Shown here one piece after another: positions 16,022 through 31,853 of a stretch of DNA of 32,000 bases (its first letter is position 1; each line of letters opens with the position of its first letter). Source of the DNA: an uncultured Actinomycetota bacterium (lineage in GTDB: Bacteria; Actinomycetota; Acidimicrobiia; Acidimicrobiales; Palsa-688). The DNA is taken from assembly GCA_963783945.1 (NCBI GenBank), contig CAWAPS010000005.1, positions 444,500 through 476,499 of the forward strand. The letters are read 5' to 3'. The notes under the pieces were generated by a model. It saw only the letters and a list, made by a program, of their open reading frames with translations, was not told the origin of the DNA and ran no database searches. A program made the position numbers and the translations under genes.

Positions 16022-16777
16022 CTACGGCGTGGGCGGCCGGAGTGAGCCGGTTTGTGGGCTCTGACCCGTGTCGACGAGGGCTTGGGCCACGTCGCGGATT
16101 CTGGTGTTGAGGTGTTGGGACGCTCGGCGCAGGATCTCGTAGGCCTGGTCGGCGGTGATGTGTTCGCGCTCCATCAGGATCCCTTGGGCCTGGCCGATCA
16201 TCTCCCGGGTGGCCAGCGCCCCCTGGATGGTGTCGCGCATCTCGTCTTCGTGAGCCTCGGCCGCGGTGAGGGCCAGGCCGGCCATGGCCGCGAGGATCAC
16301 GCCCTTGGCCCGGTCCAAAGCGCCGAAAGCGCGGGGATAGTGGGCGTAGAGAATGAGGGCGGCGCCCCGACTGGCGTCGTCGGATAGGCGCAACGCCAGG
16401 GCGCTGCGCACCCCCGCCTTGGCTGCGTCGGGCCCGAAGGACACCCAGCGGGGATCGTCGGCCAGGTCCTCGGCGTAGACCGTTCCGCCTTGATTGATGG
16501 CGTCGAGGCCGGGGCCCTCCCCGGCCTGGTGCTGGACCACGTCGACTCCGGCCGCCACCGAGTCGGTCCCCACCGGGGTGGCAGCGCTGTTGGTGTCGAT
16601 GACGAAGATGCTGGCAAAGTCACAGCCGTCGATGGTCTCCACCGCCAGGTCCACCACCGCTCGCAAGGTGTCAGCGGGGTTGCCGGCCGAGAACAGGGCC
16701 TGGGCCGTCTCCGAGAAGCTGGCCGTGAGCTCCGAACTGCGGTCGTCCGCGCTGGTGGGATGCTCGCCAGTAGTCAT
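16022..16777 (-). CDS. GAF-ANTAR domain RNA-binding regulator
   Basis: Internal ATG at 16777 preceded by GAGGA. GAF-like core, then ANTAR helices (ALATREMIGQAQGILMEREHITADQAYEILRRASQHLNTRIRDVAQALV). Confidence 0.85.
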   Translation of the reverse strand: MTTGEHPTSADDRSSELTASFSETAQALFSAGNPADTLRAVVDLAVETIDGCDFASIFVIDTNSAATPVGTDSVAAGVDVVQHQAGEGPGLDAINQGGTVYAEDLADDPRWVSFGPDAAKAGVRSALALRLSDDASRGAALILYAHYPRAFGALDRAKGVILAAMAGLALTAAEAHEDEMRDTIQGALATREMIGQAQGILMEREHITADQAYEILRRASQHLNTRIRDVAQALVDTGQSPQTGSLRPPTP

Positions 16778-17280
16778 AGGTCCTCGATCCGCGGATGTCT
16801 GGGATCGAACTCTATCGAGGGTCAGCGAATCGTCAACCGCCCGAGCCGGCACACCTCAACGGCGACATCACCGCCACGGCCACCCAAACCTGAGAAACGA
16901 AGCCGGACAAGCGATCTGCAGGGCTGACACCAGTTGACCGCCCAGACGGACCATGCCGATCGACGGCCCGGGCGTGACCGTCCGGTCGGGGCTTTGGCTC
17001 CGAACGTGCGCTCATGAAACTGTCGTCGGCGACACATCCAAACTGTCTCGAAAGGCCCGCTCACAGACCGGAGTGTTATGGCAGCCCCTCTTCGAAGCGC
17101 GTTCGTGACTCGTGTTAGACAGTCTTGAGGGGGATGCGGGTGCGGGCATTGCTGGCCGGGTGTAGTGTGTTTCCGGCACGGTGAATCCCGGTCGTGTTGG
17201 GTCAGCTTCGGCTGGCCCGGGAGCGATGCTCCGGACCCTGGTAGCGCGTGATTGGCAGCGCCTAATGCCAGGAGAGTCCT

Positions 17281-20822: not shown

Positions 20823-21563
20823 TCAGGGCCGGGCCGTCGGGGTGGTAGGGGCCCATGCGGCGGGATCGAGGGTGCCGTCGATCGAGGCTTGGGCGACATC
20901 GGTAAGACGCAGATTGTGGTTCCGGGCGTAACGCCGTAAACGGGAGAACGCTTCGGCCAAGTCGACGCCGGCCCGTTCAGCCATCACGCCTTTCGCTTGC
21001 TCGATCACGACACGGCTCTCCAGGGCGCGGGTGAGCTGTTCGTTGACGCGTTGGGTTTCGAGCACGGCCCGGTGCTGAACGATGCCTATGGTAGCCAGGT
21101 CGGCGAACGCTTGGGCCACGACCACGTCGGCGTCGTCCATGGGGGCCTCCTCGACCGCGAACAGGTTCAGGGCGCCGATGGTTGCGTGCCGCAGCCGCAG
21201 CGGCAGCGCGAAGACCGAGCCGAAGCCGGCCTCTAAAGCAGCCGCCGAGAACCGGGGCCAGCGGCCGGTACCGGCGCGCAGGTTCTCATGTTCGATGCGC
21301 TGGCCGGTATGGAAGGCGTCCAGGCAGGGGCCTTCGTCGGCCTGCAGCTCGAACAGTTCCAGGATCCGCATGGCCTCGTTGGATGAGGCCATCAACCGCA
21401 ACTCACCGTCGGGGGAGGCCAGCATCACTCCGGCTGCGGACACGCCGAGCAGCTTCACACAGCGGTCTGCCAGGCCGGTGAGTAGCTCCACCACGTCGAA
21501 GTCTTCCACCAGGGTGTCGGCTAGCTCGACGAGCATCTGCACGACGGAGGACTCTCGGGTCAT
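20823..21563 (-). CDS. GAF-ANTAR domain RNA-binding regulator
   Basis: AAGGAGGG lies before the ATG. GAF core (EGPCLDAFHTGQ), then ANTAR (ALESRVVIEQAKGVMAERAGVDLAEAFSRLRRYARNHNLRLTDVAQ). Confidence 0.85.
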   Translation of the reverse strand: MTRESSVVQMLVELADTLVEDFDVVELLTGLADRCVKLLGVSAAGVMLASPDGELRLMASSNEAMRILELFELQADEGPCLDAFHTGQRIEHENLRAGTGRWPRFSAAALEAGFGSVFALPLRLRHATIGALNLFAVEEAPMDDADVVVAQAFADLATIGIVQHRAVLETQRVNEQLTRALESRVVIEQAKGVMAERAGVDLAEAFSRLRRYARNHNLRLTDVAQASIDGTLDPAAWAPTTPTARP

Positions 21564-21686: not shown

Positions 21687-22382
21687 TCATGAGAACCGCA
21701 GCGTGCGGTCCACGACCTCTTGGGCCACGTCGTGGAGCAGGCGATCGTGGCTGAACGCGTACGCTCGTAGATGGATGAGTGCTTCGCCGACACTCACCCC
21801 TAGCTGGACGGCCACCATGCCGGCGGCGTTGTGCACCACGAAGCGGAAGTCGGCGCCGAACTCCAATTCCCTGGCCAACCCGCCCGGGGGTGCCGCGGCT
21901 TGGACGTCGAGCACCCAACGGGCGGCGACGTCGGCCATTACCAACGCGTCGGCGTGCTGGCCGTCGCTCAAGGGTCCGGGCCGGTCCCGATACAAGTTCA
22001 AGGCGCCGAGGCGGACAGTGCCCACCCGCAGCGGGAACCCGAAGACGGCCCGCGCTCCCGCCTCTACCGCCGGTGGCGTGAAGGCCAACCAGCGAGGGCT
22101 GGCAGGGTCAGCCAGGTCGGGCTCGAGCACCACGTCGTTGTACCGGTAAGCGTCCACGCACGGACCCTCACCCAGGGTGAACTGCAACTCCTCGATCAGG
22201 TTGCTCACCTGGTTTGTCGAGCACAACGATCCCCGGGGTATCTCGCCCGACATCAACATGACCCCTGTGCCCGTGATACCGATGACATGTGCGCCCACCT
22301 CGCACAGCCGAGCCGCCGCCGGCCGGCCGTCGTCACCCGCGGACAGTTCATCCAAGATACGCCGCAGCCGCTCACCCGCCAT
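21687..22382 (-). CDS. GAF-ANTAR domain RNA-binding regulator
   Basis: GAF core (GEGPCVDAYRYND, FGFPLRVGTVRLGALNLY), then an ANTAR-like C-terminus (VVHNAAGMVAVQLGVSVGEALIHLRAYAFSHDRLLHDVAQEVV). Confidence 0.8.
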   Translation of the reverse strand: MAGERLRRILDELSAGDDGRPAAARLCEVGAHVIGITGTGVMLMSGEIPRGSLCSTNQVSNLIEELQFTLGEGPCVDAYRYNDVVLEPDLADPASPRWLAFTPPAVEAGARAVFGFPLRVGTVRLGALNLYRDRPGPLSDGQHADALVMADVAARWVLDVQAAAPPGGLARELEFGADFRFVVHNAAGMVAVQLGVSVGEALIHLRAYAFSHDRLLHDVAQEVVDRTLRFS

Positions 22383-26992: not shown

Positions 26993-27637
26993 ATGTCCCA
27001 GCTGCTCCGAGTCCAATGCTTCAACGTGTCGCGGGATGGGTTCGGTGCCGGTGAAGGTCAGAGCCTCGAACACCCCTTCGGGCATGCCAGCCCCGCCGAT
27101 CTGTTCTCGTGGGCCGGCGCCACCGCGAGCTGGGTCAACCGAGCGGACCCCGGCGGCGCCCGCGGGCTCGACGACTACTTCACCCGCGACATGACGCGCA
27201 ACATCGGCGCCGAGATCATGGGGCGGAACAAGTTCGGACCCCAACGCGGACCGTGGAAGAGCCTCGACTGGAAGGGATGGTGGGGCGACACTCCGCCCTT
27301 CCACACCCCGGTGTTTGTACTCACCCACCACGAGCGCCCCTCTTTCGCGCTCGCCGACACGACGTTCCACTTCATCGACGCCACACCCGCCGAGGCCTTG
27401 GAGCAAGCGCAGGAAGCTGCTGGCGGCATGGACGTGCGCTTGGGTGGCGGCGTAGCAACCATCCGCGAATTCCTCGAAGCCGACCTCGTTGACACGATGC
27501 ACGTCGCTGTCGCGCCAACCGATCTCGGTCGAGGCGAACGCCTTTGGACTTCCCACAGCGAACTGCTCAATCGCTTCCACCGGGACTCTGTGCCCAGCCC
27601 CAGCGGAGTGACCCATCTGCTGTTCTGGCGGCGGTGA
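26993..27637 (+). CDS. dihydrofolate reductase-like (RibD C-terminal domain) family protein
   Basis: GAAGGA lies before the ATG. Contains FNVSRDGFGAG ... IMGRNKF ... VFVLTHH ... RLGGGVATIREFLEADLVDTMHVAVAP. Confidence 0.8.
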   Translation: MSQLLRVQCFNVSRDGFGAGEGQSLEHPFGHASPADLFSWAGATASWVNRADPGGARGLDDYFTRDMTRNIGAEIMGRNKFGPQRGPWKSLDWKGWWGDTPPFHTPVFVLTHHERPSFALADTTFHFIDATPAEALEQAQEAAGGMDVRLGGGVATIREFLEADLVDTMHVAVAPTDLGRGERLWTSHSELLNRFHRDSVPSPSGVTHLLFWRR

Positions 27638-27805: not shown

Positions 27806-28672
27806 CTACAGGAAGCCGATCCTCGACAGCGGCCACACCAGGATGAACGCCCGCCCGATGAACAGGCTCCCCGGGACCGGGCCGAAGACCCTCGAATCGC
27901 TGGAGTCGGTGCGATTGTCGCCAAGCATGATGTACTCCCCGGGTGGAATGCGGCAGGAACCGGGGGGCGAGGGCAGGCACCCAGGGATGCTGGAGGGGAA
28001 GACGGTGACCCCCTGGTCGACCTTTGGGAGCCAGGGTTGCGGCAGATAACGGCCGTCGACGTAGACTTGGCCGTGGCGGGCGGAGATCGTCTCGCCGGGA
28101 AGGCCGATGACCCGCTTCACCAGGTCGGTGATATCCGGCGTGGTGTCGTCCGCGGGCTTCTTGAAGACCACGATGTCGCCTCGGTGGACGCTGTGGAAGT
28201 GGTAGCTCAGCTTGTTCACGAGGAGCCGGTCGTGGGTCTTGAGCGTCGGTTCCATGGACCCGGACGGGATGCTGAACGGCTGCACCACGAAGGCCCTGAT
28301 GAGGATGGCGGCGACCACTGCCACCGCGACGATGGCAGCCCATTCGACGATGACTCGGGTCGCCGAATGCGACTTCAGACTCGGCGGCTCACCGGGGTCC
28401 CCTGCAGGGTCCTCCTCATCGGTCGGGTCAGCGGGAACTGGCAGGGACACCACGCCAGACGATACCGACCCGGCCCGCGGGCCCGGTATCGGGCCAGGAT
28501 CCGCGCCGCGACCCGGGGTGCCAGTTCTGGACAGTTCCTGTTGTCTGTCGGATCTGGCGGTCAGGCGACACTGGCAGGCGGCTCGACTGGGGCGGGGAAG
28601 GCTCGGGTCTGGTTTGCTTCGGACTCGTTGGTCAGCGTGGCGGATTGACCGTCGGCTACCAGGTGACGCCAA
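27806..28672 (-). CDS. lepB: signal peptidase I (S26 family)
   Basis: The catalytic boxes SGSMEPTL, RGDIVVF, KRVIGLPGE and GDNRTDSSDSR follow a TM segment. The start is uncertain: 28672 would overlap the upstream gene by ~110 nt, and GTG GTG at 28453/28450 is an alternative. Confidence 0.85.
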   Translation of the reverse strand: MASPGSRRSIRHADQRVRSKPDPSLPRPSRAACQCRLTARSDRQQELSRTGTPGRGADPGPIPGPRAGSVSSGVVSLPVPADPTDEEDPAGDPGEPPSLKSHSATRVIVEWAAIVAVAVVAAILIRAFVVQPFSIPSGSMEPTLKTHDRLLVNKLSYHFHSVHRGDIVVFKKPADDTTPDITDLVKRVIGLPGETISARHGQVYVDGRYLPQPWLPKVDQGVTVFPSSIPGCLPSPPGSCRIPPGEYIMLGDNRTDSSDSRVFGPVPGSLFIGRAFILVWPLSRIGFL

Positions 28673-28980
28673 CTGGTTTGCCAGTCTGGAAGTTCGGGAC
28701 TGGGCTGTTCCCAGTCGACGAATGTCGCCTCGTCGCAGAGATGATCCAGGAGTCCTTCAGTGCTGAGATGGGGCTCAGCGTTGACGTAGGCTTGCATCTG
28801 GTTCCGCTGTCGCCAGGCGGTGACGCTCCACCACGCCTCGTGGGCTTCAGCGAGGGCGTCGGCTCCCAGGTTGCCTTCGGATTTCATTGCCTGTTCGAGC
28901 ACAGCGGCGGCATGGGTGAAGAACTCGTCGAGGAGGGAGGAATCCCTGAGCCGCAGGCGGGTCACGACGATGATTGGCAT
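28561..28980 (-). CDS. hypothetical protein, possibly ABM/ferredoxin-like fold
   Basis: ATG at 28980 after AAGGA (MPIIVVTRLRLRDSSLLDEFFTHAAAVLEQAMKSEGNLG ... WWSVTAWRQRNQMQAYV). The family assignment is tentative. Confidence 0.55.
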   Translation of the reverse strand: MPIIVVTRLRLRDSSLLDEFFTHAAAVLEQAMKSEGNLGADALAEAHEAWWSVTAWRQRNQMQAYVNAEPHLSTEGLLDHLCDEATFVDWEQPSPELPDWQTSWRHLVADGQSATLTNESEANQTRAFPAPVEPPASVA

Positions 28981-29305
28981 GCGTGTCCTTCTACTGGTGA
29001 GTTCACGGCTCCTAACGCATCGCGTCTGAGGGCGCTGGCCGCGGTGATGAGTGGGAATGATGGGTGAACCTGGGTATGGAGATAGGGCCGACCCCGATCT
29101 CCATCGATGGACTGAGGATCCCTCAACATTCACGCCGAGGCGGCCTTGAATTAGGCAGCGGTGGCGTCGGAGGTGTGGTCCGGCGTACAGAGAACTTCTA
29201 ACGCTGAGCGGCACGACTTGTTGCCAGTTGCGGTGGCTGTGCGGTTAAAAGGGTGATCATCGCGGGCGGGGCGTAGCCATGCAAGCCCATCTGGGACTAG
29301 GGGGC

Positions 29306-30289
29306 TCAGGCGTCGGGCGGGCTGGTCGATTGGACCCACGCTTGGCGCAGGGAGGCCGGTATCCGACCTCGATTGGGGATGTCCAGGCCGTGGCGTCGAG
29401 CCCAGTCTCGGATCTCGGCCGGGGAGGGATCGCTCTGGCGTTGTGGGACGGACCTCAAGTTCGGCTCATGGCCGATTCGCTCTATTGCTGCGGGTTCGGT
29501 GGAGACCCAGGCATGGGCGGCGGCCAGGTAGCGGTAGGTCCATTCCTCCGCCAGGCTCCGGGTGTCGCAGAACACGATGGGAATGTTGGGCCAGCGGACC
29601 TGGCATTCGGCGATCCCATCGGCGACTAGGGAGGGTCGGACCCGGTCTTGCTTGTAGATCTGCGAGTAGCGGTCCTCGACCACGACGGCGGCGCGGGGCA
29701 GGGCGGCCAGTTCGCCGAGGGCGTAGCGGAGCCGGCCGCTGGTGAGGCTGGCGATCAGGTCGGGCACGGACTTCCGTTCCACCGCGGCGACGAGCACTCC
29801 GTCGAGGATGATCCCGTAGTCGCCGCAGGGCAGGCTTCGGGTGGTCGTGCGCACCTGCTGGCCGGCGAAGTGGTAAGCGTAACGTTCGTGGGCGTCGACG
29901 ACGATCTCGAGCTCTGTGATGCCGGCGGCCCGGGCGGTGGGCAGGTTGACCTGAGGGCGGGCCTGTTTACGGGTGCGGGGGGACTGCCAGAACACCGCGT
30001 TCCGACCCCGGGCGGTGGTGAAGACCAGCTGCGAGCGGTTCTCTCTGGCTCGGGCGGCGACGATGTCAATGGCCGCCCCCCGACGGGCGCAGGAGCGCAG
30101 CGGCACCCGTTCCACGATGTCCGGATCACGTGGCCACTCTTCGGCCGGGACCGGGTAGCAGTAGAGGGCTTTGGTACGGGGCCAGGTTCCGGCAGTGCGC
30201 AAGACGATCCCTTCGCCCAGCGGCACCCGGAGCAGATAGGCGAGGGTGGAGTCCGGATGGGGGTTGGTGGCGATGATTAGTTCTTGCAC
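29306..30289 (-). CDS. ERCC4/XPF-type nuclease domain fused to an Lsr2-type C-terminal DNA-binding domain
   Basis: EIVVDAHERYAY ... LPCGDYGIILDGVLVAAVERKSVPDLIASLTSGRLRYALGELAALPRAAVVVED matches the GDY...ERK ERCC4 signature. The C-terminus PSPAEIRDWARRHGLDIPNRGRIPASLRQAW matches the Lsr2 RGR-hook domain (compare [26 protein letters not shown]). The N-terminal ~130 aa are unassigned. GTG start with no Shine-Dalgarno. Confidence 0.8.
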   Translation of the reverse strand: MQELIIATNPHPDSTLAYLLRVPLGEGIVLRTAGTWPRTKALYCYPVPAEEWPRDPDIVERVPLRSCARRGAAIDIVAARARENRSQLVFTTARGRNAVFWQSPRTRKQARPQVNLPTARAAGITELEIVVDAHERYAYHFAGQQVRTTTRSLPCGDYGIILDGVLVAAVERKSVPDLIASLTSGRLRYALGELAALPRAAVVVEDRYSQIYKQDRVRPSLVADGIAECQVRWPNIPIVFCDTRSLAEEWTYRYLAAAHAWVSTEPAAIERIGHEPNLRSVPQRQSDPSPAEIRDWARRHGLDIPNRGRIPASLRQAWVQSTSPPDA

Positions 30290-30331
30290 GGGCGGAGGGC
30301 GATCTGGTCAGCCAAGGGGCTCGACCAACCA

Positions 30332-30364
30332 TAGTTGAGAGGCCGAGTTGATCAACTTGTTGAC
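30332..30364. promoter_or_regulatory. AGTTGA half-site cluster including a perfect 12-bp palindrome, upstream of the ERCC4-Lsr2 gene
   Basis: AGTTGA (30332-30337), AGTTGATCAACT (30345-30356) and TGTTGAC (30358-30364), lying 43-75 bp upstream of the GTG at 30289. Confidence 0.3.
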
Positions 30365-30677
30365 CGCCGTAGTTCGCACCACACTCCGGGGGCGCCGGTG
30401 CCCTGAAACTGGGTGGGGTTGGCGCGGCAGCCGCCTCGATGACCTGCCTAGAGACTTCACGAAAATGTCCAGCAAACGATCTTGGACGAGACTGGGAGTA
30501 GAACCCCGTCGACTAAGGGTCCATCTGCACCCCTCTGGACCGGAGCCAGACCTACCTGCCGGCGGCCGGGGCGCGGTCGGCGTCAAGGATGGCAGACCGG
30601 CGCATTGACCAAGACGCGGCGAGCGCTGGTGTGTTATCGCAACTACTTGACGCGAAGTGGTCAGGCCGGGCGCGGCT

Positions 30678-30792
30678 GGGCGGGGGAGGGGGAGGGCGGT
30701 GCGGCGCAGGGGGGGTGCTGTGCGGGGGGCCGGCAGGGGGTGCGGCGCAGGACGGGCCGGCAGCGGGTGCGGCGCAGGACAGGCCGGCGCCG
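30678..30792 (+). repeat. G-quadruplex-type G-tract run followed by an imperfect tandem repeat
   Basis: GGGCGGGGGAGGGGGAGGG (30678-30696). GGTGCGGCGCAGG recurs at 30698, 30739 and 30766, and the last two units are 27 bp apart and nearly identical. Confidence 0.6.
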
Positions 30793-31297
30793 GACGGGAC
30801 TCCGGAGGGACGCGCTGTCACAGGGCGGAGCTCGGCGAGCGGCGACGTTGACCAGCACCGGTCCTATCTCATCGATCCGGCTCGACACCCGGTGGGAGTG
30901 GCGGACGTCGGGGGCAACCCCGGCATGCGGGCGACACAACCGCCCAGGGCGCTTCAAATGATGGTCCCGCCCAGACCGGACACGCCAGGGGGGTAGCGCG
31001 TCGTATAGCGGTCTGGGCGGGTATGACTACGCCAAGCGCACGCCGCACACCTGAGTAGTCACAACGAGCGTAGCGCAGGATCTTCGCAGAGGTAACGATT
31101 CGAGTTCGACCGGCTGGCCGGCTCATCCACCGCCAGCGACGGGCCGGCGCCGACGTCGCTCAGGTGACCCAGGTTCGACCGACCGAGAACACATCGAAAC
31201 ATTCTCTAGTCGAACTGACAGTCGATTTTCGCCTCCCCGATCCAGGACAGCCCCGTTCAGGGTCTGCCGCGGCGACAGCGGCCTTGCCGACTCCAGT

Positions 31298-31375
31298 CAC
31301 CCCCCTCACCCACCCCGACCCCCTCACCCACCTTCACCCACCTTCACCCACCTTCACCCGACCCCGACCCCCGCC
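31298..31375 (+). repeat. C-rich decamer tandem repeat
   Basis: CCCTCACCCA, then CCTTCACCCA twice, then CCTTCACCCG (31321-31360). Related CCTCACCCACCCCGACC-type units flank it. Confidence 0.6.
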
Positions 31376-31853
31376 CCGCGACCCACCCGGATCGGCGCCT
31401 CGCCCCCTGCCGGTTACCGTCAGGTTGTTGCCCGGGATTTCAGATCTGATTACTGCCGCCGGAGCGGTCCGTCCCCACTGCCCGGCCGACGGTCAGATCT
31501 CGTCGACGATTGTGTGTCATTCGGATCGTAGGCTTCTCCGAGCCAGTCGGGTCGGAGATCTGAAGGGTGAGGCACACATCGCATTCGCCATAACGGGAGG
31601 TATACCGACCGGTCAGTACCGGCAATGAAAAACGGTGGTGCACGGTACCCGCCTCACACACCCGGCAAACCTCGGTCGGCCGCGTGCTCGCCACGCCCCG
31701 CGACAATACCGACGCAAGGGCGGCTGGCCGGCCCTGCTCGGCTACGGGCTGCCCGCACGGGTAGCCAATGCCGAGCCAGAAACCGCTACCGGATAATCCA
31801 GGCGGCCGGAGACATTGGTCGAGCGAACCCGACGACCCGACAACTCACCGGGT

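Follow-up and report, generated by a model that had tools for sequence, protein, structure and literature searches.

Why would an actinobacterium carry a nuclease of the XPF type joined to the DNA-binding tail of Lsr2, and on what would such an enzyme act? The question is raised by one gene in a 32,000-nucleotide (nt) stretch of DNA, hereafter the window, from an uncultured member of the Acidimicrobiales (GTDB Palsa-688; GenBank assembly GCA_963783945.1, contig CAWAPS010000005.1, positions 444,500 to 476,499). A first-pass annotation, made from the letters of the window, had offered defence, anti-silencing and recombination as possible roles of the gene. We followed it up with domain assignment, structure prediction and comparison of loci. 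The gene encodes three modules with an intact catalytic set and an RGR hook, it is under strong purifying selection, and its family is found in a mobile context. We put at about one in two the probability of the reading that we prefer, in which the protein is a predicted active endonuclease of the XPF/Hef/Mus81 type with a new architecture (barrel, basic linker, ERCC4 domain, flexible linker, Lsr2-type domain) and would serve as a portable enzyme that processes the branched DNA of recombination, replication or repair; its substrate, dimeric state, AT preference and role we infer by analogy.

An ERCC4 nuclease with a complete catalytic signature and an Lsr2-type tail

The gene and the parts of its 327-amino-acid (aa) product lie in the window as follows; predicted local distance difference test (pLDDT) values are from structure models, including those made with AlphaFold2 (AF2).

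29306 to 30289, minus strand: complete coding sequence of the three-domain nuclease, GTG start, TGA stop, 327 aa, from the list of open reading frames (ORFs)
29978 to 30289, minus strand: N-terminal domain, residues 1-104, predicted eight-strand beta-barrel of LigD 3'-phosphoesterase-like fold (AF2 and Foldseek)
29912 to 29977, minus strand: conserved basic linker, residues 105-126 (PRTRKQARPxVxLPTARAAG), disordered by prediction, pLDDT below 50 in both models
29474 to 29911, minus strand: ERCC4/XPF-type nuclease domain, residues 127-272, with D132, E135 and the C-terminal helix EEWTYRYLAAA (PF02732; Foldseek matches to Hef, XPF and MUS81)
29759 to 29824, minus strand: catalytic signature GDY(x12)ERKxxxD, residues 156-177, aligned with GDY...ERKS..DL of Hef 1j22
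29432 to 29473, minus strand: variable linker, residues 273-286, poorly conserved and of varying length, pLDDT about 45-57
29324 to 29431, minus strand: Lsr2-type C-terminal DNA-binding domain, residues 287-322 (PF23359, 2kng, 6qkp), with the RGR hook at residues 307-309 (nt 29363-29371)

Two of the modules were assigned by sequence profile. Pfam places ERCC4 (PF02732) on residues 131-253 (E=1.8e-18, 67.3 bits where the cut-off is 24, over profile positions 1-139 of 140) and Lsr2_DNA-bd (PF23359) on residues 287-317 (E=4e-10, 39.3 bits where the cut-off is 26.9), neither of which could be a chance match. The motifs VVDAHE, GDY, ERK, VVVED and RGRIP stand at residues 130-135, 156-158, 171-173 (with D177 after it), 202-206 and 307-311. 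A sequence search of the PDB returned the nuclease domain of Pyrococcus Hef (1j22, E=7e-4), with GDY, ERKS and DLI aligned residue for residue, and three Lsr2 DNA-binding domains in all, including 2kng and 6qkp (E=8e-4). The predicted full-length structure, in which pLDDT was 83-93 for the nuclease domain and 85-89 for the tail, matched Hef 1j22 and 1j24 in Foldseek with template modelling (TM) scores of 0.76-0.78 and a root-mean-square deviation of 2.9 Å (for 1j22, TM 0.76 at 29% identity). Aeropyrum XPF, human XPF and MUS81 were matched too, all with probability 1.00.

The residues expected to matter are conserved. Among 39 homologs that are 72-92% identical, D132, E135, G156, D157, Y158, E171, R172, K173, D177, E205, R307 and G308 are invariant and R309 is conserved in at least 90%; in a second set, of 13 members with identities as low as 42%, each catalytic residue is invariant or kept in at least 90%. 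A strict regular expression finds GDY(x12)ERKxxxD together with a C-terminal RGR or RGK hook in 66 of 80 family members, and all three domains are intact in 74 of the 80 nearest species copies. The first-pass description of an intact XPF/ERCC4 nuclease with its catalytic signature, followed by an Lsr2-like tail with an RGRIP hook, is therefore borne out by profiles, by the matches to Hef 1j22, 2kng and 6qkp, by Foldseek and by the alignment: the profiles support both homologies, and the catalytic residues are conserved. A protein 100% identical to this one (P0001) exists in public data.

Scores against the NCBIfam models were far below threshold for Hef (33.5 bits against a cut-off of 610) and archaeal Xpf (11.3 against 300), and Rad1 was likewise sub-threshold, so that the protein carries an ERCC4 domain but is no ortholog of Hef, Rad1 or archaeal XPF. 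Pfam at E<=1 finds no helix-hairpin-helix (HhH) family in it, the C-terminus being the Lsr2_DNA-bd domain; nor does Pfam find the N-terminal dimerisation/oligomerisation domain of Lsr2, residues 1-272 being taken up by the barrel and the ERCC4 domain. A single-sequence PDB search also aligned residues 65-146 with 2n6e and 4goq (E=0.023); the match was gone with a family profile and was treated as chance.

The N-terminal domain is predicted to be a phosphoesterase-like barrel

The first 126 or so residues have no match in Pfam or among PDB sequences, even with a family profile. The first-pass annotation had found the first 130 or so residues unrecognisable; this holds for the sequence and does not hold for the model, which resembles the barrel of LigD 3'-phosphoesterases. 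When the domain was predicted alone by AF2 from a 112-sequence alignment, pLDDT was 86, with values above 90 for residues 1-104, and eight beta strands were formed. Foldseek of this model against the PDB gave 3p43, an archaeal member of the LigD 3'-phosphoesterase superfamily, as the sole outlier (probability 1.00, TM 0.62/0.63, 123 alignment columns against a 124-residue chain), all other PDB matches having TM of about 0.2-0.3. A weaker echo came from the viral structure set, in which an 827-residue protein matched with probability 0.99 and TM 0.50. Matches to the p97 N-domain in the low-confidence full-length model were disregarded, as pLDDT at the N-terminus of that model is below 50.

We compared the domain with the sequences of 3n9b, 5dmp, 3p43 and 3p4h and 120 stand-alone phosphoesterase (PE) proteins. 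Three profile-profile comparisons by hhalign, with two LigD_N alignments, gave nothing significant (probability below 1%, E 0.08-0.4), and none of 34 N-domains matched Pfam LigD_N (PF13298) at E<=10. All three hhalign runs chose one collinear register over strands 1-3 (FVVARNPDxDSxLPYLLRLP against FVVQKHhAshLHYDFRLEMDG). In this register the His-His-Asp metal ligands of PE are matched by N9, A17 (Pro in most members) and L19. The nuclease family alignment has no conserved histidine, and neither the His/His/Asp ligands nor the Arg/His/Tyr phosphate site of LigD phosphoesterases is present; LigD-type phosphoesterase chemistry is therefore not expected. The domain is thus predicted to be a phosphoesterase-like barrel at the level of fold, outside the LigD_N family.

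The invariant residues of the predicted barrel are N9, L16, P23, W36, P37, W52, P53, R70, G71, R85, S86, Q87, G95, R96, W101 and Q102, and the basic linker that follows is strongly conserved, with P112 invariant and T106, A110, P117 and R120 conserved in at least 90%. The invariant polar residues (N9, S14, R70, R85, S86, Q87, R96, Q102), together with a linker that is conserved while predicted to be disordered, suggest a conserved binding function, for which nucleic acid is the most plausible ligand. A search with the N-domain alone, over 1.84 billion cluster representatives, returned 703 proteins, of which the best 150 were classified by our own domain hidden Markov models and 80 were scanned against Pfam. 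Among the best 150 of the 703 the domain was found essentially only before an ERCC4 domain, with other Pfam families in one or two members each.

A large family under purifying selection in Actinomycetota

A protein search found at least 4,965 clusters in the nuclease family, the best 120 of which are 73-100% identical to the window protein and nearly all have both Pfam domains. Scanning one genome per species, we found a relative in at least 540 species (540 confirmed of at least 599 candidate stretches). The earlier view that ERCC4 nucleases are uncommon in bacteria is thus untrue for Actinomycetota. The locus analyses below cover the best 80 of these species copies, with 8 kb on each side; loci carry L numbers and proteins P numbers. 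Hosts are nearly all Actinomycetota, and identity among the best 80 is 63-87%. Copies in metagenome-assembled genomes (MAGs) of Acidimicrobiia, the group of the window itself, are 81-87% identical, and those at 63-72% come from Mycobacterium, Mycolicibacterium, Pseudonocardiaceae, Frankiaceae, Nakamurella, Nocardioidaceae, Streptosporangiaceae and others. An identity of 65-70% between classes of one phylum is very high for a patchily distributed gene. The ratio of nonsynonymous to synonymous substitution rates (dN/dS) is 0.13-0.29 across family pairs and 0.17 between the window copy and its closest relative, L081, both of which are without a recombinase. The family is under purifying selection.

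Divergent subfamilies show which modules are kept. P0175 and P0253 (281-283 aa) keep the N-domain and ERCC4 and have no Lsr2 tail, the RGR hook is missing from the Lsr2-like tail of P0186, and P0248 (450 aa) has a different C-terminus with about 170 extra aa. The family core is therefore the N-domain plus the nuclease, to which tails of several kinds are attached, most often the Lsr2 hook. A GIY...YVGK-like (GIY-YIG-like) motif was seen by eye in the additional C-terminal part of P0248; it had no match among PDB sequences and is unconfirmed.

These variants bear on an alternative in which cutting is beside the point and the protein acts as a competitor of host Lsr2, an anti-silencer or 'stealth' factor whose tail displaces or mimics Lsr2 and whose ERCC4 domain is a dimerisation scaffold. 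Such a role would suit a protein that has only the DNA-binding half of Lsr2, the oligomerisation domain being absent, and a gene that sits on plasmids and transposons; Lsr2-like proteins are known from phages and plasmids (PHROG matches; PMC8612146). However, the catalytic residues hardly vary even in members only 42% identical, as would be expected of an active enzyme, and the tail-less P0175 and P0253 indicate that the core is the nuclease and not the hook. Anti-silencing by an inactive nuclease, one option of the first-pass annotation, is thus unlikely in view of the strong constraint on catalytic residues, and we regard this alternative as very improbable.

Some members of the family are irregular. 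The copy in L013 (L013:8001-8983) is interrupted after about 64 codons, and L067 has, about 470 bp downstream of its intact copy, a further 134 bp from the 5' end of the gene (L067:9447-9580). Within P0121-P0270 a large share of the 50%-identity cluster representatives are truncated or frame-switched inside ERCC4, some of them on contigs longer than 100 kb; the cause could be decay into pseudogenes, or faulty assembly of GC-rich long-read MAGs. Near-identical members (L019, L064; P0025, P0289) occur in MAGs labelled Dormibacteria, Burkholderiales, Nitrospiraceae and Candidatus Lustribacter, which points either to transfer outside Actinomycetota or to binning contamination.

The nuclease is the last gene of three recombinase-linked units

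A recombinase gene lies within 1.5 kb of the nuclease gene in 14 of the 80 loci, upstream and on the same strand in all 14. Pairwise DNA comparison resolved three discrete units, the limits of homology coinciding between genomes while the flanks differ. The nuclease is the last gene in every unit, and the unit ends 50-110 bp past its stop codon.

L001:4818-9050, L002:4858-9047 and L003:4800-9050, about 4.2 kb: type A unit, two tandem tyrosine recombinases (346 aa; 492-626 aa), then the nuclease
L031:525-5567, L036:43-5067 and L060:503-5514, about 5.05 kb: type B unit, in Mycobacterium MAGs
L055:7318-9056 and L066:7318-9056, also L042, L050 and L052, 1.74 kb: type C unit, serine recombinase (Pfam Resolvase and HTH_7) and nuclease

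Type A units sit in different chromosomal contexts in three Acidimicrobiaceae MAGs, end in the inverted repeat GTTATACGGGTGATC / GATCACCCGTGTAAC, and have a gap of 345-377 nt ahead of the nuclease gene. The order in type B is a tyrosine recombinase of 434 aa, a large tyrosine recombinase of 723 aa (both Phage_integrase), a DUF6262 protein of 140 aa and the nuclease, the four genes overlapping or standing 6-7 nt apart. Type B has 24-nt terminal inverted repeats, 96% complementary, exactly at the homology boundaries, with extra TTATGCCGAC-like repeats beside the ends. The stop codon of the type C resolvase and the start codon of the nuclease share bases (TGATG), and L055 and L066 are 99%-identical copies with unrelated flanks in one MAG; a terminal inverted repeat was sought in type C and none was found. 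A fourth resolvase, only 39% identical, lies upstream and co-directional on a 21-kb M. chimaera plasmid. From these sequence comparisons, units of all three types are presumably mobile. In L042 a 52-bp inverted copy of the type C right end lies 5.2 kb upstream. The hexamer AAGATC was tried as a motif common to the three kinds of element end and was dropped, as 17 of 79 against a background of 14% is no enrichment.

The arrangement could mean that the nuclease is a dedicated helper of recombinase-driven transposition or retention, that is, part of the mobility machinery. It might resolve the Holliday-like intermediate of Tn554 and of strand-biased circularizing elements (SEs), make a second-strand cut, or cut emptied donor sites so that repair restores the element; TnsA is the second-strand cutter of Tn7, and TnpB cuts emptied donor sites for IS605 and IS607. 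In favour of a helper, the gene is downstream, co-directional and terminal in 14 of 14 recombinase-linked loci with at least four recombinase lineages, its start overlaps the resolvase stop in type C, it belongs to a four-gene operon with 6-7 nt gaps in type B, and it ends 50-110 bp from the element end. ERCC4 enzymes, as known for the family and in line with the Foldseek matches, cut junctions and flaps, and Tn554-type transposition is described as strand-biased and poorly understood (PMC10214605). However, 66 of the 80 copies lack a recombinase gene next to them and are nonetheless intact and under purifying selection. In type A the nuclease gene is set off by 345-377 nt, serine and tyrosine recombinases would have to be served by a single mechanism, and the protein has no sequence-specific module with which to recognise an empty site. 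We consider a dedicated helper unlikely. Equally long odds attach to its most specific form, a guide-free, structure-reading recombinase partner that would be an unrecognised component of small serine- and tyrosine-recombinase transposons with a TnsA/TnpB-like role, resolving junctions or cutting emptied or hairpin-forming target sites, with the Lsr2 hook on the AT-richer element ends and the barrel reading a DNA end.

The window copy is best read as a stranded type A copy

The window gene itself has no recombinase beside it, and its surroundings were compared with the type A units and with its closest relatives.

29239 to 29305, minus strand: conserved 3' flank shared with type A loci (blastn matches to 29239 for L003, 29238 for L012 and 29272 for L081; downstream-flank alignment)
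29244 to 29258, unstranded: relic of the type A right-end inverted repeat, reading GATCACCCTTTTAAC on the gene strand, 47 nt after the stop, with two mismatches to GTTAYACGGGTGATC
30290 to 30376, minus strand: 5' flank, also conserved in type A and presumed to be promoter and leader (blastn against L003 ends at 30376)
30377 to 31405, unstranded: gene-poor stretch, context outside the gene, with G-rich and C-rich tandem repeats and ORFs without Pfam matches

Type A units and the window thus have 67 bp past the stop and 87 bp ahead of the start in common. The right-end motif of type A stands 46-50 nt after the stop in L001, L002, L003 and L013 (46-48 nt in L001-L003), and an inverted copy of it forms the left end of the unit in L001-L003. 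In the 32-kb window, tblastn with all recombinase types found no recombinase remnant, and no left-end inverted repeat was found anywhere. Type A flanks and a relic of the end repeat at the matching distance, with neither recombinase nor left end, indicate an old, stranded copy; the window gene is best read as an old chromosomal copy of the two-tyrosine-recombinase unit that has lost its recombinases and left end and has been kept intact by selection.

For the closest context we used the 92%-identical P0002 (loci L081-83). There the nuclease gene has the same position in the chromosome and is preceded by a large regulator gene (Trans_reg_C, BTAD, TPR) and a gene for a 294-aa methyltransferase. 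The methyltransferase gene stands where the window has its gene-poor stretch, and for the most part it is without a counterpart in the window; the sequences downstream of the nuclease differ. Upstream, positions 30336-31405 (about 1.07 kb) hold no family-matched ORF, where L081-83 have about 70 bp upstream of the gene instead; the tandem repeats in this ORF-poor stretch are G-rich at 30678-30788 (periods 6-27) and C-rich with a 10-nt unit at 31297-31384. The first-pass remark that the gene sits alone beside a repeat-rich, gene-poor stretch was accurate: there is no operon partner in the window, and both tandem-repeat clusters were confirmed. No promoter-like or terminator-like consensus site was found around the nuclease gene, and Rfam had no match in the window.

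The downstream neighbours (27806-28672 and 28561-29214 on the minus strand, 26993-27637 on the plus strand) encode a signal peptidase I (Peptidase_S26, E=6e-49), a small ABM-domain protein and a RibD_C-domain reductase, none of which is conserved beside the nuclease gene at other loci. Farther away, three paralogous ORFs of 231-276 aa (16022-16852, 20823-21563 and 21687-22382, all on the minus strand) cluster with ORFs of L005 and L028.

Plasmids and neighbourhoods, and the case for defence

Clustering of ORFs at the best 80 loci gave no conserved neighbour; the best neighbour cluster occurred at 9 of 80, in scattered positions. Among 144 immediate neighbours, Pfam found Phage_integrase in 6, ordinary enzyme families in 3 each, DUF6262 in 3, Resolvase in 2 and Mutator transposase in 2. 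PADLOC 2.0 matched only 2-3 of the 144, all with generic kinase or helicase models, and its sole match to the nuclease itself was the Lsr2-like tail of the MTase_II model (E=1.9e-4).

In the plasmid collection, 23 records from Mycobacterium, Mycolicibacterium, Rhodococcus, Pseudonocardia and Streptomyces have the family gene. Carriers include the 21-kb M. intracellulare/chimaera plasmid, M. avium p2-JPH1 and M. ulcerans-group plasmids, among them pMUM002 of M. liflandii; M. chubuense pMYCCH.01 has the gene at three places, the most per plasmid. Its surroundings there are insertion sequence elements, integrases and toxin genes. The family is absent from the phage collection, where we found just two distant ERCC4 matches in haloarchaeal viruses. 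On four plasmid records (NZ_CP109056.1, NZ_CP118322.1, NZ_CP118316.1 and NZ_CP118327.1) the Prokaryotic Genome Annotation Pipeline names members 'histone-like nucleoid-structuring protein Lsr2', a name that is misleading for proteins with only the Lsr2 DNA-binding tail behind a nuclease.

One alternative is single-gene cargo for defence against foreign DNA or for conflict between elements, in which the Lsr2 hook would steer the nuclease to AT-rich DNA. In a host of 65-70% GC, AT-rich DNA is mostly horizontally acquired; replicating or transcribed foreign DNA would be cut at unwound AT-rich tracts, and elements would carry the nuclease since the host is protected or competitors are excluded. 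The combination of a nuclease with an AT-rich minor-groove reader fits, as do the patchy, horizontally spread and plasmid-borne occurrence of the gene and its place as the only passenger of minimal transposons; the type B mobility module is laid out as in Tn554 and the Gamma-Mobile-Trio (GMT), and the cargo of the latter has been described as rich in defence and offence tools (bioRxiv 10.1101/2023.03.28.534373; PMC10214605). However, PADLOC recognises nothing in the protein beyond the Lsr2-like tail and little around it, there is no conserved partner for self-protection such as a methylase or immunity gene, and AT-rich tracts of the host itself would be targets too. Conservation of the whole protein is also unusually high for a defence gene, and tight packing with recombinase genes in types B and C is unexpected of free cargo. 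With 2-3 generic hits among 144 neighbours and no phage copies, the defence role proposed in the first-pass annotation finds no contextual support, and we hold this explanation to be possible and doubtful.

A proposed portable enzyme for branched DNA

Constraint on the whole protein, selection on copies without a recombinase, the lack of a defence context, linkage to at least four recombinase lineages and carriage by plasmids are together fitted best by a portable enzyme acting on branched DNA. Recombination was the third option of the first-pass annotation, and the recurrent plasmid and recombinase-unit context favours it, or alternatively a role as passenger gene.

How such an enzyme could work is suggested by its relatives. 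As in the XPF family, two ERCC4 domains would pair into a homodimer, and D132, E135, D157, E171, K173 and D177 would hold a divalent metal. The dimer would nick one strand of a duplex beside a junction of single-stranded and duplex DNA, such as a 3' flap, a fork, or a nicked or intact four-way junction. The Lsr2 hook, in the place of (HhH)2, would hold the enzyme to the minor groove of one duplex arm and, like Lsr2, favour AT-rich tracts. The degenerate barrel and basic linker, in the place of a helicase-like N-terminus, may read a DNA end or a single-stranded arm and would remove no phosphoester. As a self-contained module spread by actinobacterial mobile DNA, the nuclease would trim or resolve branched intermediates of recombination, replication or repair for the replicon that carries it, and in many cases these may be the intermediates of the site-specific recombinases with which it travels.

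Several points weigh against this reading. First, with the seeds used, 66 of the 80 loci are without an adjacent recombinase and their solo copies are still under purifying selection, so that transposition alone is unlikely to account for the role of the gene. Second, the recombinase partners differ in chemistry: serine recombinases, unlike tyrosine recombinases, make no Holliday junction. Third, dimerisation, AT preference and choice of substrate are carried over from relatives, and the phosphoesterase-like assignment comes from one predicted model and one PDB match at TM 0.62, with profile comparisons that are non-significant. Fourth, cargo for defence or another benefit to the host would also take the form of one passenger gene at the transposon's far end. 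Lastly, a search of the literature library found no paper on an ERCC4-Lsr2 nuclease family, nor anything relevant on ERCC4 in mycobacteria or plasmids.

The combination of domains is itself already visible in database labels, JGI and NCBI naming members 'ERCC4 domain/Lsr2', hence the bare observation is not new. What appear to be new are the predicted phosphoesterase-like fold of the N-domain, the Lsr2 hook in the place of HhH2, and the role as sole extra gene in three kinds of minimal recombinase element, including Tn554-like units in Actinomycetota. XPF/Mus81-type nucleases are textbook repair enzymes of archaea and eukaryotes. The family described here is a large, strongly conserved bacterial branch in which both accessory modules have been swapped, a barrel for the helicase-like domain and an Lsr2 hook for HhH2, and which moves among Actinomycetota by way of plasmids and, presumably, minimal transposons. 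Among its carriers are Mycobacterium plasmids of clinical relevance (M. chimaera, M. avium and pMUM of the M. ulcerans group), and some members are now wrongly named 'Lsr2'. If it is a flap or junction nuclease, it would be a candidate for as yet unassigned branch-processing steps in actinobacterial recombination, end-joining or plasmid maintenance. If it were instead a recombinase partner, it would add a new protein class to the transposition machinery and extend Tn554-like elements to a new phylum.

Comparison with known systems

The closest structural relatives of the catalytic domain are archaeal Hef and short XPF (Pyrococcus Hef 1j22-1j25; Aeropyrum XPF 2bgw/2bhn), which share the ERCC4 fold, the GDXnERKX3D metal site, the N-terminal acidic pair and a common layout of nuclease followed by a small C-terminal DNA-binding domain. 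This last domain is (HhH)2 in the archaeal enzymes, whereas the window nuclease has an Lsr2-type hook there; it also has a barrel and basic linker instead of a helicase or helicase-like N-terminus, and no PCNA motif. Hef and XPF are core repair genes of archaea and eukaryotes, whereas the present family is bacterial (Actinomycetota) and borne by mobile elements. The nuclease fold of XPF-ERCC1 and MUS81-EME1 is recognisably the same (Foldseek probability 1.00), and the expected substrates would be 3' flaps, forks and nicked junctions. XPF-ERCC1 and MUS81-EME1 have HhH2 domains and work only as heterodimers, one partner of which is catalytically dead; in contrast, the family here is encoded by one gene with no conserved partner gene, and is presumed to form a homodimer.

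The two flanking modules have different relatives. With Lsr2 (2kng, 6qkp) the nuclease shares the two-helix DNA-binding domain with its RGR minor-groove hook, 19 of 32 residues being identical to M. tuberculosis Lsr2; as it is without the N-terminal oligomerisation domain, it cannot be a nucleoid-bridging silencer. The predicted barrel superposes on the whole 124-residue chain of the LigD-type 3'-phosphoesterase 3p43 (relatives 3n9b and 3p4h; PF13298) but has no Pfam match, no significant profile score and none of the metal ligands. To our knowledge, PE domains are otherwise found within LigD or as stand-alone proteins and never fused to an endonuclease. As an analogy of design only, NucS/EndoMS is likewise actinobacterial and archaeal and joins an N-terminal beta-barrel for DNA binding to a C-terminal restriction-endonuclease-like catalytic domain. 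Its catalytic family is RecB-like, its barrel is different, and it is a chromosomal mismatch-repair gene with a clamp-binding motif; our analysis detected no homology between it and the nuclease family.

The type B unit, finally, resembles Tn554 (TnpA/B/C), SEs and GMT (GmtY/Z/X). The gene layout of these elements (PMC10214605; bioRxiv 10.1101/2023.03.28.534373), an ordinary and a large tyrosine recombinase with a small third protein in a single operon between short, imperfect inverted repeats, is that of type B, whose DUF6262 third protein has a sub-threshold match to a GmtX-like NCBIfam model (E=0.0097). Tn554-related elements have been reported solely from Staphylococcus and Enterococcus (PMC10214605), whereas the hosts of type B are Actinomycetota, and in type B the nuclease is the only other gene, packed into the operon of the recombinases.

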